Source: a virus
Virus genome (UHGV): UHGV-0118820
Reading direction: 5' to 3' (one strand)
Length of the DNA: 11,711 nucleotides
Made by a program: the position numbers and the translations under genes. Under the pieces are notes generated by a model. The model was not told where the DNA came from. It ran no database searches and saw only the letters and a program-made list of their open reading frames with translations. Within the stretch, counting starts at the first letter, position 1; each line of letters opens with the position of its first letter. Positions 230-11,711 of this stretch are shown piece by piece.

Positions 230-3200
230 ATGACTCATCAAACACACACCATTGCTGAATCCAATAACTTTATCGTTCTTGATAAGTACATCAAAGCTGA
301 GCCAACAGGCGACAGCTACCAGAGCGAATCGGACCTGGAACGAGAACTGATTCAGGACCTGCGGAATCAGGGCTATGAATTTATATCCGTAAAATCACAG
401 TCGGCGATGCTGGCCAATGTTCGGGAACAGCTTCAGAACCTCAATGGTGTGGTGTTTAATGACAGCGAGTGGCGGCGTTTCACGGAGCAGTATCTGGATA
501 ACCCGAGCGATGGCATTCTGGATAAGACCCGTAAAATCCATATCGACTATATTTGCGACTTTATTTTTGATGACGAGCGTCTTGAGAACATCTATTTGAT
601 AGATAAAAAGAATCTCATGCGCAATAAGGTGCAGATTATCCAGCAGTTTGAACAGACGGGTTCTCATGCTAACCGTTATGACGTCACGATCCTGGTTAAT
701 GGCTTACCGCTGGTGCAAATCGAACTGAAAAAACGCGGCGTGGCGATTCGTGAGGCTTTCAACCAGATACATCGTTACAGTAAAGAGAGTTTTAACAGCG
801 AAAATTCCCTGTTTAAGTATCTGCAACTGTTTGTCATTTCTAACGGCACCGATACCCGTTATTTTGCCAACACGACAAAGCGCGATAAAAACAGTTTTGA
901 CTTCACCATGAATTGGGCGAAATCAGACAACACGCTGATTAAAGACCTCAAAGATTTTACCGCTACCTTTTTCCAGAAACATACTCTGCTTAATGTTCTG
1001 GTGAACTACAGCGTTTTTGACAGCAGTCAGACGCTACTGGTGATGCGACCGTACCAGATTGCTGCCACCGAGCGCATTCTGTGGAAAATTAAGAGTTCCT
1101 TTACAGCGAAGAACTGGTCAAAACCGGAAAGCGGTGGGTATATCTGGCACACTACCGGTTCTGGTAAAACCCTCACCAGCTTTAAAGCCGCGCGTCTGGC
1201 AACAGAGCTGGACTTTATTGATAAAGTCTTCTTCGTGGTCGACAGGAAAGACCTCGATTACCAGACCATGAAGGAATATCAGCGTTTTTCGCCAGACAGC
1301 GTCAACGGCTCGGAAAATACCGCAGGCCTTAAACGAAATCTGGATAAGGACGATAACAAAATTATCGTCACTACTATTCAGAAACTCAATAACCTGATGA
1401 AAGCAGAAAGCGACCTGCCTGTATACAATCAGCAAGTGGTGTTTATATTTGATGAATGCCACCGCAGCCAGTTTGGAGAAGCGCAGAAAAACCTGAAGAA
1501 GAAATTCAAACGCTATTATCAGTTTGGTTTTACCGGTACCCCTATTTTCCCGGAAAACGCCTTAGGCTCAGAAACGACCGCCAGCGTATTTGGTCGTGAA
1601 TTGCATTCGTATGTAATTACCGATGCGATTCGTGATGAAAAAGTGCTCAAATTCAAGGTGGACTACAACGATGTGCGGCCACAGTTTAAGTCTTTAGAGA
1701 CAGAAACTGACGAGAAAAAACTAAGTGCGGCTGAAAATCAGCAGGCGTTTCTTCATCCCATGCGTATTCAGGAAATCACGCAATATATTCTGAATAATTT
1801 CCGCCAGAAAACTCACCGTACCTTCCCTGGCTCAAAAGGTTTTAATGCTATGTTGGCAGTGAGCAGCGTGGATGCCGCGAAAGCCTATTACGCGACGTTT
1901 AAACGGTTACAAGAGGAAGCAGCTAATAAATCGGCTACCTATAAACCGCTGCGTGTTGCGACAATCTTCTCCTTTGCTGCCAATGAAGAACAAAATGCCA
2001 TTGGTGAAATTTCCGATGAAACTTTTGATACCAGCGCAATGGACAGCAGTGCTAAAGAGTTTCTTGACGCTGCAATTCGTGAGTATAACAGCTATTTTAA
2101 AACTAACTTCAGCACCGACAGTAACGGTTTTCAGAACTACTATCGTGATTTAGCCCAACGGGTTAAAAATCAGGATATCGATCTGTTAATTGTCGTGGGG
2201 ATGTTTTTAACTGGCTTCGATGCTCCAACATTGAACACGCTATTCGTCGATAAAAACTTGCGTTTTCACGGCCTGATGCAGGCATTTTCCCGCACCAACC
2301 GTATTTATGATGCAACTAAAACCTTCGGTAATATCGTCACTTTCCGGGATCTGGAACGCTCAACTATTGATGCCATAACGCTGTTTGGTGACAAAAACAC
2401 CAAAAATGTGGTTTTAGAAAAGAGTTATGCAGAGTATATGGAAGGCTTTACTGATGCTGCCACTGGTGAAGCTAAGCGCGGCTTTATGGCAGTAGTTTCA
2501 GAACTGGAACAACGGTTCCCTGACCCTGCCAGTATTGAAAGTGAAAAAGAGAAGAAAGACTTCGTTAAACTGTTTGGTGAATACCTGCGTGCCGAGAACA
2601 TCCTGCAAAACTATGATGAATTTGCCACGCTGAAAGCCCTGCAACAAATCGATCTTAGCGATCCTGTTGCGGTAGAAAAATTCAAAGCAGAACATTATGT
2701 GGATGATGAAAAGCTCGCTGAATTGCAAACAATTCGTCTCCCTGCTGATCGCAAGATTCAGGATTATCGTTCTGCCTATAACGATATTCGCGACTGGCAG
2801 CGCCGTGAGAAAGAAGCTGAGAAAAAAGAGAAATCAACCACTGACTGGGATGACGTAGTTTTTGAGGTCGATTTGCTGAAGTCTCAGGAAATAAACCTGG
2901 ATTATATCCTTGGACTGATTTTCGAACACAACAGACAAAATAAAGGCAAGGGCGAAATGATCGAAGAGGTCAAACGCTTAATTCGTTCAAGCCTAGGGAA
3001 CCGTGCTAAAGAGGGCCTGGTGGTCGATTTTATTCAGCAAACGAACCTGGATGATTTACCAGACAAAGCCAGTATCATTGAGGCATTCTTTACGTTTGCT
3101 CAACGCGAACAGCAACGTGAAGCAGAAGCATTGATAAAAGAAGAAAATCTCAATGAAGATGCAGCAAAACGCTATATTCGCACGTCTTTAAAACGCGAAT

Positions 3201-3346
3201 ACGCCACCGAAAATGGCACAGAATTAAACGAAACATTACCAAAACTTAGTCCGTTAAATCCGCAATATAAAACGAAAAAACAGGCAGTTTTCCAGAAAAT
3301 CGTCTCGTTTATTGAGAAGTTTAAAGACGTAGGCGGAAAAATATAG
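230..3346 (+). CDS. hsdR: Type I restriction enzyme R subunit (HsdR), intact, 1038 aa; EcoR124-like (type IC) by recollection
   Basis: Single uninterrupted 3117-nt ORF with SD AAGGA. Contains helicase motif I (WHTTGSGKT), DEAD-box-like motif II (FIFDECH), an N-terminal PD-(D/E)xK nuclease region (VQIELKK) and motif VI (QAFSRTNR). Length and N-terminal sequence match my recollection of EcoR124I HsdR. Confidence 0.95.
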
Positions 3347-8453: not shown

Positions 8454-8768
8454 TTAAGCAGCATACAACCACTTATCGCCGTTCAATACATGCTCAATAG
8501 CCTCACCCTTTTTAAGGCTTATGTATTCCAGGATGGCGGTAATCGCTTGTTCTGCACCATACGCAAGAACGACGTAGTAACCTTCCTCTCTAAGCCTGCG
8601 CATCCAGGCGATCTGCTCTTTCGTCGGGGCTTTACCATTTGGTTCTTTAAGCTCAATTCGCATGCCGTGATAAATACCGCATGCTTTATCGAGACTCATG
8701 TCCGGATAACCTTTTTTCTGCCCTTCAGCCTTCATTTTCCCGGCGGTTGCTTTTGAACGTTTCCCTCT
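8454..8768 (-). pseudogene. VRR-NUC domain (PD-(D/E)xK) nuclease gene, 5' end truncated by IS insertion
   Basis: GYPDMSL and IELKEPNGKAPTKEQIAWMRRLREEGYYVV match the VRR-NUC core. The N-terminal part of the domain is absent. The ORF-track N-terminus ([24 protein letters not shown], 8769-8840) is encoded by the IS inverted repeat, so it is a chimeric artefact. Confidence 0.7.
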
Positions 8769-8839
8769 GAAGTGGTTTACTGAATTTGGCCACCTGAACA
8801 GAGGTGATATGCTCACCTCAGAACAACACAGGTGCTCCA

Positions 8840-9102
8840 ATGAAAAAAAGAAATTTCAGCGCAGAGTTTAAACGCGAATCCGCTCAACTGGTTGTTGACC
8901 AGAACTACACGGTGGCAGATGCCGCCAAAGCTATGGATGTTGGCCTTTCCACAATGACAAGATGGGTCAAACAACTGCGTGATGAGCGTCAGGGCAAAAC
9001 ACCAAAAGCCTCTCCGATAACACCAGAACAAATCGAAATACGTGAGCTGAGGAAAAAGCTACAACGCATTGAAATGGAGAATGAAATATTAAAAAAGGCT
9101 AC
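8840..9102 (+). pseudogene. IS3-family OrfA (HTH transposase N-terminal protein), 3' end interrupted by IS30
   Basis: [16 protein letters not shown]...[12 protein letters not shown], then the reading frame runs into the IS30 terminal repeat. The ORF-track start at 8804 is an upstream extension; ATG at 8840 is the likely true start. Confidence 0.8.
9091..9097 (+). promoter_or_regulatory. A-AAA-AAG programmed -1 frameshift heptamer of the IS3-family element
   Basis: AAAAAAG in the X-XXY-YYZ register of the orfA frame (codons tta-aaa-aag). Known frameshift signal of IS911-type elements. IS30 is inserted 5 nt downstream. Confidence 0.6.
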
Positions 9103-10323
9103 TGTAGATTCAATCTGTCAATGCAACACCCCTTTCAATTATCTCTTTCGGTGTTTTGAACTTCAGTGTCTTTCTCGGTCTGTTGTTTAGCTGAGCAGCA
9201 ACCAGATCTAGTTCATGTTGAGTATATTGGGCAAGACATGTCTTTTTAGGAAAGTACTGCCGAATTAGCCCATTTGTGTTCTCATTTGTTCCCCGCTGCC
9301 AAGGACTCTGAGGATCGCAGAAGTAAACTTTAACGCCGGTGCTGACAGTAAATTCTAGATGTCTGGCCAGTTCCATTCCTCTGTCCCATGTCAGTGATTT
9401 TCTGAGTTCTGACGGTAAACTCAGGAATTTGTCGGTAAGAGCCTGATTTACTGAGACAGAATCTTTGCCCCTGAGTCTAAGGATGATCGTATAACGTGAT
9501 TTTCGGTCTACAAGTGTGGCTATATGAGAGTTTTTTGTACCTGAGACTAAATCGCCCTCCCAATGCCCCAGAGAGCGTCTGTTATCGATATTTCGGGAAC
9601 GTTCGTGAATTGGTGTTCCGTTCACTATGTTAATCGTACCTCTTTCGCCTTTGCGGGTATGACGCCTGCCATGGCGAAGGCTATGCGACCGTCGCAGATG
9701 CTGTATATTCAGGTGGTGTAGCGCTTCACGGCTACGAAAGTACAGCGTTTTATAAATTGTCTCAGGTGATATTCGCAGCGTTTTTTGACGTGGTTTTGTT
9801 CGCCTTAACCATCCTGATATTTGCTCTGGAGACCATTTCATCTCCAGCTTTTCCAGAACAAGCTTTCGCAATGGTAAATTTTGATCCAGTAAGCACGGTT
9901 TTGGCCTTTTCGCCATTCTGTTGGCTCGGTTATTAGCATCAACAGCTTTGTAATAGCGTCTGCCCCGATTACGCTGAACTTCACGTGAGATCGTCGAAGG
10001 ACTGCGATTCAGCGCAGTAGCTATCGCACGAATGCTCATTTTGGCTGACAAACCAGCTCGTATCTCCTCGCGCTCAGACAGTGTCAGGTGAGCTACAGCC
10101 CGCTTACGCTCATGGGGTTTTATGCCGCCAGTATCCCTTAACATAGTGAAGATCGTTCCGGGTTTTGAACCCAGGATATTCGCTATTTCACTGAAGCCTG
10201 TTCCGTTCTTCCATAGTTCAAAAACAGAGGCTTTTTCCTCTGCTGTAAATGTTCGTCTCATTCAAAAAACCTCCGCAACCCCATGTTTTCACATAACTGT
10301 TGCGTTGACCAATTGAATCTACA
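9103..10323 (-). mobile_element. IS30, complete (1221 bp) with 26-bp terminal inverted repeats
   Basis: Terminal repeats TGTAGATTCAATCTGTCAATGCAACA (9103-9128) and TGTTGCGTTGACCAATTGAATCTACA (10298-10323). Length and ends match my recollection of IS30. Confidence 0.9.
9110..10261 (-). CDS. insI: IS30 transposase (383 aa)
   Basis: Intact 383-aa ORF with an N-terminal HTH region and a DDE integrase core (HWEGDLV). Size is as expected for the IS30 transposase. Confidence 0.92.
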
Positions 10324-10325
10324 GC

Positions 10326-11211
10326 GGCGTACTTCGCAAAGCTGTCCGACTGAGGTACGCCTTTATCCGTGACAACTCCTGTTGCTGGCCTGTTCGCCTG
10401 CTCTGTCGGGTGCTGGATGTTCATCCCAGTGGTTTTTACGCCTGGCTTCAGCAGCCGCATTCACAACGCCATCAGGCAGACCTGAGACTGACAGGACAGA
10501 TTAAACAGTTCTGGCTGGAATCGGGATGCGTCTATGGTTATCGCAAAATCCATCTGGATCTGCGTGACAGCGGGCAACAGTGCGGAGTAAACAGAGTCTG
10601 GAGACTGATGAAACGTGTCGGAATAAAGGCTCAGGTCGGATACCGAAGCCCGCGGGCACGTAAAGGCGAGGCCAGTATCGTGTCGCCCAACAGGCTTCAG
10701 CGACAGTTCAATCCGGATGCTCCGGATGAGCGTTGGGTAACGGATATAACCTACATCAGGACCCACGAAGGCTGGCTGTATCTTGCCGTGGTTGTTGATC
10801 TGTTCTCACGCAAAATTATCGGCTGGTCCATGCAATCCCGGATGACAAAGGACATTGTCCTGAACGCACTGCTGATGGCTGTATGGCGGCGTAATCCCCA
10901 AAAACAGGTGCTGGTTCATTCGGATCAGGGCAGTCAATGAATGGCAGTCGTTCCTGAAATCACACGGCCTGGAGGGCAGCATGAGCCGTCGCGGTAACTG
11001 CCATGATAATGCGGTTGCAGAAAGCTTTTTCCAGTTGTTGAAACGCGAACGGATAAAGAAAAAGATCTACGGAACGCGGGAAGAAGCCCGCAGCGATATT
11101 TTTGATTACATCGAAATGTTTTATAACAGTAAGCGTCGGCATGGTTCCAGCGATCAGATGTCACCGACAGAATATGAAAACCAGTATTATCAACGGCTCG
11201 GAAGTGTCTAA
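10326..11211 (+). pseudogene. IS3-family OrfB (DDE transposase/integrase), frameshifted
   Basis: The frame is open from 10326 (…CRVLDVHPSGFYAW…) through WVTDITYI and LVHSDQGSQ to a stop at 10938-10940. The remaining C-terminus (SMSRRGNCHDNAVAESFF…) continues in another frame to TAA 11209-11211. A 1-nt-class indel lies near 10935-10945. Confidence 0.75.
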
Positions 11212-11496
11212 ATTATCCGTGGCGATTCATTGTTAACCAGCTAAGAAACTCAGCTTTCTGGTTCACCAGCTAAAACTGCGGTTCACGTTCCCTGATTCTT
11301 TGCTCGGGGAGGGGAGAGCAGTCCGAGTCACAGGCTGTTTCCTCCTCACCTTTTTCAACCAGGTCAACAACGGCTATTTTAGAGGATAATCACGTTGGGG
11401 GCGTTTGAACTCAGTCATCGTCACGTTCTCCGGATTTAAGTCAGGAACATGTCAACGATATTCAGGGCGGGTTACTTTCTTACTAAGTGAAAAATC

Positions 11497-11553
11497 ATGT
11501 TAACTATAAAATATATTCTATTTGTTTGTGTTGTTAATTCGATTTTTTCTACC
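11497..11553 (+). pseudogene. Possible 5' fragment of a gene for a signal-peptide-bearing protein, truncated by IS1
   Basis: ATG at 11497 opens MLTIKYILFVCVVNSIFST (charged n-region plus hydrophobic core), and the frame runs straight into the IS1 terminal repeat at 11554. Weak RBS. Only 19 native codons are visible. Confidence 0.25.
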
Positions 11554-11711
11554 GGTAATGCTGCCAACTTACTGATTTAGTGTATGATGGTGATTTTAAG
11601 GTGCTTGCGTGGCTTCCATTTCCATCAGATGTCCTTCCTGCTCCGCTACTGAAGGCGTGGTGCGTAACGGCAAAAGCACTGCCGGACATCAGCGCTATCT
11701 CTGCTCTCACT
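11554..11711 (+). mobile_element. IS1 family element, left end (continues beyond window); sequence variant of canonical IS1
   Basis: GGTAATGCTGCCAACTTACTGATTTAGTGTATGATGG matches the IS1 terminal inverted repeat from memory, with a few substitutions. Followed by the start of insA. Confidence 0.85.
11609..11711 (+). CDS. insA: IS1 InsA, N-terminal part (truncated by window end)
   Basis: GTG start, then [33 protein letters not shown]: the zinc-finger-like N-terminus of IS1 InsA. Confidence 0.8.

Follow-up and report, generated by a model that had tools for sequence, protein, structure and literature searches.

The Escherichia coli insertion sequence (IS) IS30, of the IS30 family, prefers "nearly palindromic" hot spots, makes 2-bp target duplications, and exchanges its flanks through deletions, inversions, and cointegrates (PMC9333248; Olasz, Kiss and co-workers); one hot spot named for it is lambda LHS (PMC9333248). 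Interruption of the K-12 IS911 by IS30 has already been noted (PMC9333248; PMC4924310). IS911 belongs to the IS3 group of the IS3 family, and ISEhe3 has been assigned to the IS51 group of the same family (PMC10425158); a 92-amino-acid (aa) "ISEhe3 orfA" has been reported in Shigella (PMC4924310 / PMC10425158). Here we analyzed the virus genome UHGV-0118820, a DNA stretch of 11,711 nucleotides (hereafter the window, which means this whole stretch). Nucleotides 8768–11229 of the window very probably represent a three-part chimera, composed of an IS911 left part, an intact IS30, and an ISEhe3 right part, which were joined through the shared IS30 and not by nested insertion.

As a described counterpart, the K-12 IS911A::IS30A (insN/insI1, CP4-6 prophage) carries IS30 at the same position as the window, with the left junction AAAAAAGGCTAC/TGTAG, but in the opposite orientation and with a proper AC duplication. 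To the right of IS30, that same element goes on with its cognate sequence, ACCGCGCTCTTG..., whereas the right flank in the window is ISEhe3. The K-12 host element is nearer to ISEc52 (96.8%) than to IS911 (91.7%); across MG1655 270206–272190, annotated as "IS911A" (L004, 8207–10191), identity was 96.8–97% to ISEc52 copies and only ~91.7% to IS911. The 2-bp duplications and flank exchange of the known IS30 hot-spot rearrangements (PMC9333248) are likened to the arrangement in the window, where the hot spot is an IS3-family frameshift window. The locus is another instance of a known IS-mediated mosaic, and IS30-in-IS911 in K-12 is a textbook annotation.

The left arm of the composite (8768–9102, 335 bp, plus strand) was 98.2% identical to a copy labeled "IS911 family" by the Prokaryotic Genome Annotation Pipeline (PGAP) and 91.9% identical to ISEc52. 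In common with IS911 it holds an IS911-type left inverted repeat (IRL, 8768–8803), orfA starting at 8840, and the A-AAA-AAG heptamer at 9091–9097, which is followed by the IS911-specific GCTAC (9098–9102); beyond IS30, the similarity to IS911 falls away. Unlike IS911, the window has neither the IS911 orfB nor its right end, as the IS911 right inverted repeat (IRR) TGAAGTGGTCAACAAAAACTGGCC is missing and the IRR of the window is TGAATCGCCACGGATAATTTAGACAC. As determined from the translation and the list of open reading frames (ORFs), the truncated OrfA fusion ORF (8840–9190, plus strand, 116 codons) comprises 87 IS911 OrfA residues and then reads through into the IS30 end. The left junction GGCTAC/IS30 is identical to that of the K-12 IS911A::IS30A and to those of P1-like plasmids. 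In alignments the left arm itself appeared mosaic: the IRL tip GGTTTACTG (TGAAGTGGTTTACTG) is of the ISEc52/P1-plasmid/K-12 type, a variant that differs from IS911, whereas from ~nt 67 onward (8768–8835 versus 8836–9102) the arm is of the IS911 type that the CFT073 composite also has. This suggests that the left arm was patched by recombination with another IS911-family copy, and at least two recombination events would therefore be needed. In the "IS911 family" reference copy (L006, ~1220–1230) the slippery run is one A shorter (TTAAAAAGG), yet PGAP annotates it with a programmed frameshift.

The central block is a complete IS30 of 1221 bp on the minus strand (9103–10323), which begins with TGTAGATTCAATCTGTCAATGC and ends with GCGTTGACCAATTGAATCTACA. 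Comparison of its inverted repeats (IRs; IRR 9103–9128, IRL 10298–10323) determined imperfect terminal repeats of ~26 bp beginning with TGTAGATTCAAT. The block was identical to the K-12 IS30A at 1219 of 1221 positions, in reverse orientation, and its length, its termini, and its 383-aa transposase are those of IS30. The transposase ORF (9110–10261, minus strand, 383 codons) is uninterrupted, and PGAP labels the same copy in relatives as an "IS30-like element IS30 family transposase." Thus, the IS30 of the window looks intact and is potentially active. Unlike a simple IS30 insertion, it has no 2-bp direct repeat around it, since two separate insertions contributed its flanks; the missing duplication does not argue against its identity as IS30.

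The right arm (10324–11229, 906 bp, plus strand) was 98.5% identical to the right part of a natural ISEhe3 (L008), whereas a forced global alignment with the IS911 orfB gave only 64% identity. A protein-guided scan, in which one genome stood for each species, located natural ISEhe3 as a 1229-bp IS3-family element in E. coli, Klebsiella, Pantoea, Scandinavium, Serratia, and others. Its ends are cognate (TGAATCGCCACGG..., 26 of 36 positions matching), and its own left inverted repeat TGAATCGCCACGGGTTTAAC... and its own orfA (MSGKRYPEEFK...) are both absent from the window; no DNA similarity was found between the left arm of the window and the left part or orfA of ISEhe3. What the right arm shares with ISEhe3 is the hairpin, orfB, and the IRR, which ends at 11229, and it differs from ISEhe3 in the loss of the left end and orfA and in an 11-bp deletion within orfB. 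Alignment with intact relatives placed this deletion, of GTACACAAGCC, between 10936 and 10937, where it creates a TGA at 10938–10940. The orfB frame is thus open from the IS30 boundary to this TGA, and the rest continues in another frame to 11211. As to the distribution of the deletion allele, all 12 of the matches listed were exact full-length plasmid matches, and 109 records fell in the band of at least 99% identity. A UniRef cluster look-up found the exact 92-aa OrfA of the natural element under the name "ISEhe3 transposase A," while PGAP and nr protein searches label the ISEhe3 proteins only as "IS3 family transposase."

The two junctions of the window IS30 carry the evidence for a joining of two separate insertions. 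AC (9101–9102) is the IS911-side copy of an IS30 target duplication, whereas GC (10324–10325), at the start of the right arm, is the ISEhe3-side copy of another. Natural ISEhe3 reads AAAAAAAGCC GC GGCGTAC, and its frameshift window is TTA AAA AAA GCC GCG GCG TAC TTC. IS30 has therefore hit each parent independently at the homologous dinucleotide (bracketed), in IS911 at AAG GCT [AC]C and in ISEhe3 at AAA GCC [GC]G; both target dinucleotides fall in the spacer of 5–6 nt between the slippery A-run and the stimulatory hairpin, and each insertion made its own 2-bp duplication. The window combines the IS911-side AC on the left with the ISEhe3-side GC on the right. The preliminary description had proposed a single IS911-like host element and a 2-bp IS30 duplication at 9101–9102 and 10324–10325. 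No such duplication exists, as AC faces GC, and the single host is contradicted by arms that match IS911 (98.2%) and ISEhe3 (98.5%), come from two plasmid loci, and end in mismatched terminal repeats. The flanks belong to two different ISs, which is the outcome that the preliminary description had itself named as speaking against a single host. The outer ends of 8769 and 11239 given there were approximately correct, and the actual ends are 8768 and 11229.

Relatives of the window provided both presumptive parents. The window is a P1-like phage-plasmid, of which 3422–8767 matches pmgS–pap of phage P1 at 98%, and the IS left end truncates the VRR-NUC gene pmgM at P1 position 79114/79115. Its nearest whole-window matches in three collections were P1-like plasmids and phages at 97.7–98% identity, none exceeding 98%. 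Related P1-like plasmids have identical backbone/IRL and GGCTAC/IS30 junctions and the same IS30 orientation, while their right flanks differ. A first parent is exemplified by pECTOK-001_2, which has the same P1 flank and IS30 orientation and reads GGCTAC/IS30/ACCGCGCTC with a clean target-site duplication (TSD) AC; to the right of IS30, it continues with ACCGCGCTCTTG..., an IS911-family element. A group II intron (ltrA) additionally splits this right part (L088, 2001–5170). Among the sister P1-like plasmids, pF829-1 continues to the right of IS30 with GCGGCTTTTTTTAATATGTCCCG, an inverted ISEhe3 left end (L089), and pLR-06-2 with GTAGCCTTTTTTAATATCG, from a third IS3-family element whose left end is inverted and broken at that same place (L090).

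A second parent is exemplified by ABWA45 and others, in which AAAAAAAGCCGC/IS30/GCGGCGTAC was found with the two flanks 1221 bp apart, a clean TSD GC, and IS30 in the orientation of the window. The junction ...AAAAAAAGCCGC/IS30 occurs at 100% identity in many E. coli, and the junction of IS30 with the ISEhe3 right part occurs in 902 records (874 of 5426 genomes). Counts per junction class from short BLAST queries were partly confounded, as noncognate flanks still align over the shared A-run. The 11-bp-deletion allele itself was found in p1-H9 and pLKSZ04, within an ISEhe3 that keeps its own left end, adjoins hok, and retains a 139-nt IS30 remnant at the same site. Furthermore, nucleotides 10495–11711 of the window, which include the 324-bp spacer and IS1 beyond the right arm, were 98.9% identical to pLKSZ04 (L094, 3106–4322). 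Because of these flank matches, the left arm is assigned to a P1-plasmid locus and the right arm to another plasmid locus, with IS30 as the sole shared sequence. The reciprocal chimera was also found: the metagenome contig OHAY01004613.1 (L165) joins an ISEhe3 left part ...AAAAAAAGCCGT through IS30 to ACCGCGCTCTTGATG, an IS911-family right part.

Within the hok-adjacent ISEhe3::IS30 (L093, 2835–2993; L094, 1522–1795), an internal deletion runs from nt 139 of IS30 to ~nt 50 of the ISEhe3 right part; the deletion junction reads ...GAGTATATTGGGCAA/CACCTGTTGCTGG, PGAP labels the product a "frameshifted IS3 family transposase," and L094 also has an IS1203 insertion. In L090 (3631–5422), L121, and L156, a single IS30-like element separates two IS3-family orfA ends that point toward one another, for example as GGCTAC/IS30/GTAGCC. 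Such head-to-head flanks, being reverse complements, are as expected for inversion or for recombination between oppositely oriented IS30 insertions.

Taken with these relatives, the junctions suggest that two IS30-bearing elements swapped flanks by way of the 1.2-kb IS30 common to both; the likeliest route is homologous recombination of two like-oriented IS30 copies. Such an exchange would have joined a P1-like plasmid backbone (pmgM′–IS911 left–IS30) to a segment of another plasmid locus comprising IS30, the ISEhe3 right part with the 11-bp deletion, the spacer, and IS1. Homologous recombination is favored because the ISEhe3 locus already had IS30. Alternatively, the IS30 transposase might have made the chimera, with an IS30 resident in the IS911-type element, or an (IS30)2 / IR–IR junction, attacking the hot spot in an ISEhe3 on the same molecule; the product would be an adjacent deletion or inversion that keeps the old flank at one end of IS30 and has the new target at the other, with no duplication. 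Intramolecular targeting of hot spots by IS30, with a 2-bp stagger, is known to yield deletions, inversions, and cointegrates (PMC9333248), the right flank in the window starts exactly at the ISEhe3 target dinucleotide, and the inverted-partner variants (L089, L090, L121, and L156) resemble inversion products. However, an IS30 remnant is already in place at that site in the native ISEhe3 locus that has the 11-bp-deletion allele, and full ISEhe3::IS30 with the TSD GC and the right orientation is common; with two pre-existing IS30 copies available, plain RecA recombination suffices. Since the product structure is identical under both mechanisms, the sequence cannot decide between them, and we consider a transposase-made origin rather unlikely.

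A single IS911-like host that was hit by IS30 and later frameshifted, as the preliminary description proposed, has to be weighed against an uninterrupted hybrid, here called ISX. ISX (E. coli AREA_504, L002, 1501–2749; HH97, L003) is a 1249-bp, uninterrupted, in-frame element, for which PGAP annotates a programmed frameshift, and consists of the IS911 left end and orfA fused at AAAAAAG/GCGGCG to the ISEhe3 orfB and right end. Copies with both halves therefore exist without interruption, at 97% identity, and removal of IS30 plus 2 nt from the window restores the orfA frame. Yet IS30 insertion into ISX would give GGC/IS30/GCGGCG and not the observed GGCTAC/IS30/GCGGCG; the extra TAC at the left junction is exactly native IS911 sequence, no TSD surrounds the IS30 of the window, and both halves have natural cognate partners elsewhere. 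When IS30 and one copy of the duplication were removed, the flanks gave only ISX and no natural element with cognate ends. An ISX-type host would need mobile, multicopy ISX-like forms reading ...GGCTACGGCG... or ...GGCTGCGGCG.... Instead, ISX was present in 188 records, or ~187 E. coli genomes, at the chromosomal site that the composite occupies in CFT073 (L001, 4001–6475); a search with 350-bp flanks retrieved 191 records versus 188 without, and no flank-less class was seen in a spread sample. ISX thus appears confined to essentially one chromosomal locus, with no sign of transposition and with noncognate IRs, and an origin of the window from such a host is highly improbable.

A better account of ISX is that it represents the composite after loss of TAC, IS30, and GC; in terms of sequence, it equals the composite without GCTAC and IS30, or with a deletion between two GC dinucleotides. 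IS30 excision is enhanced by IEE. The direction of change thus probably runs from the composite to ISX by loss of IS30. ISX as the ancestral host was rejected on the junction arithmetic and on its single-locus distribution. Nor does a crossover within the ATATTAAAAAA(A)G run that is shared fit the data, since it would predict AAAAAAGCCGCGGCG and not the observed AAAAAAGGCGGCG. Finally, nested insertion with a mutated duplication was rejected, as the left flank is exactly native IS911 (GCTAC) and the right one exactly native ISEhe3 (GCGGCG).

Several points weigh against the three-part chimera. The name ISEhe3 rests on the UniRef name of the identical OrfA and on papers. The best match to the window in the collections is 97.8% identical, and the parental molecules are reconstructed from relatives. 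The IS30 copies differ by only 2–4 uninformative single-nucleotide polymorphisms (SNPs) each, and with so few differences the crossover inside IS30 could not be mapped by SNPs. In addition, ISX carries both halves and could be taken as a single host element.

The preliminary description was upheld in several structural points. IS30 was confirmed at 9103–10323 by string checks and by its identity to the K-12 IS30A; the heptamer was read at 9091–9097, 5 nt from IS30; and the proposed indel of the orfB frame near 10935–10945, a second lesion in the integrase frame, proved to be the 11-bp deletion. That IS30 parts the slippery heptamer from a frameshift-stimulating structure was also borne out: a putative hairpin of ISEhe3 lies at 10327–10360 (plus strand). 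Its single-sequence fold gave a z of only −1.5, and among 19 ISEhe3 relatives it covaried, 3 of its 10 pairs having compensatory double changes and almost none being broken. Rfam matched no family in the window or in natural ISEhe3. The hairpin is expected to stimulate −1 frameshifting in ISEhe3.

In the window, the heptamer and the hairpin lie 1.2 kb apart, cut off from each other by IS30. Moreover, the outer repeats, an IS911-type IRL and an ISEhe3-type IRR, match at 16 of 36 positions versus 24–26 of 36 in natural IS911 and ISEhe3. The layout of a functional IS3-family element, with a slippery site, a structure at 5–6 nt, and an intact −1-frame orfB with its DDE core, was not found in the window. 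The outer element can thus make no OrfAB transposase and is dead because of the separation of heptamer and hairpin, the truncated orfB, and the noncognate ends.

IS30-like insertions at the homologous dinucleotide were not limited to the parents of the window. A Methylophaga metagenome-assembled genome holds an ISEhe3 relative (OrfB 74% identical) with a diverged IS30-like element, 70% identical to IS30, 1221 bp long, and with the TSD GC; similarly, an ISEhe3 relative in Pseudidiomarina (OrfB 71% identical) carries a diverged IS30-like element at the same dinucleotide. A metagenome scan with the pattern AAAAAAG-N4-5-TGTAGATTCAA gave 82 matches, whose constant position follows partly by construction. 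An IS30-like terminal repeat was found in 45 of these, and all 45 have the IS3-family OrfA tail ...ILKKA on the left, a tail that occurred in only 2 of 37 chance matches. The 45 junctions fell into 18 clusters of OrfA tails, of which 17 resemble the IS3 family and one (L100, ...QLIKKG) is doubtful. The clusters include IS911, ISEc52, ISEhe3, and many environmental ones; one tail we take to be IS600-like. The IS30-like side was equally varied, with 18 distinct termini in both orientations, and clean AC or GC duplications were seen where both ends lay on the contig. These insertions came from gut, marine, and soil samples (L098–L177; L034, 1254–2474; L038, 1–227). No fewer than 17 different IS3-family elements thus carry an IS30-like element at this one position.

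An insertion into this spacer would knock out OrfAB production and plant a portable 1.2-kb homology in many unrelated IS3-family elements, and would thereby drive the exchange of IS3-family halves; examples would be the window, L165, and the head-to-head arrangements. Loss of IS30 would leave a seamless, in-frame hybrid, ISX, fixed at one locus in ~187 E. coli genomes. We give about even weight to the generalization that the 5–6 nt spacer (AAAAAAG GCN NN/, within ..ILKKA..) is a conserved and strong landing site for IS30-family elements, where they plant homology and shuffle IS3 halves. In the literature covered, which did not include the 1998 target-specificity paper, we found no description of the frameshift window of IS3-family elements as a general hot spot for the IS30 family, and the newness of this generalization is uncertain.

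If the recurrent landing site is real, it would account for the abundance of IS911/IS30 and ISEhe3/IS30 junctions in E. coli, and would offer both a natural hot spot for IS30 that is defined by sequence and a way for hybrid insertion sequences to arise; if it has not been described before, it would constitute a general IS-versus-IS targeting relationship across Proteobacteria. The window itself, part of a P1-like phage-plasmid, holds dead IS3-family debris around a potentially active IS30; many sequenced E. coli have the same composite, annotated as pseudogene fragments. For annotation, two "IS3 family transposase" fragments that flank an IS30 should not be merged before the TSD and the cognate ends have been checked.

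Beyond the composite, a spacer (11230–11553) is native to the ISEhe3 locus and not to P1, as judged from the match to pLKSZ04, and is followed by the left end of an IS1 (11554–11711, plus strand), cut by the window end. The terminus GGTAATGCTGCCAACTTACTGATTTAGTGTATGATGGTG read at 11554 is presumably that of IS1, and in pLKSZ04 (L094) the corresponding place bears the annotation "IS1 family transposase." The preliminary description had called 8.7–11.7 kb an IS graveyard and recombination hotspot, which holds: IS911-type, IS30, ISEhe3, and IS1 sequences are piled up there, and this pile-up has clearly served as a recombination substrate. Upstream in the P1-like backbone, a type I restriction hsdR gene lies at 230–3346. 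Within the spacer before IS1, nucleotides 11397–11440 (GGGGGCGTTTGAACTCAGTCATCGTCACGTTCTCCGGATTTAAG) have GGGG at the start and TAAG at the end, resembling a Tn3-family terminal inverted repeat, and may be another transposon remnant.

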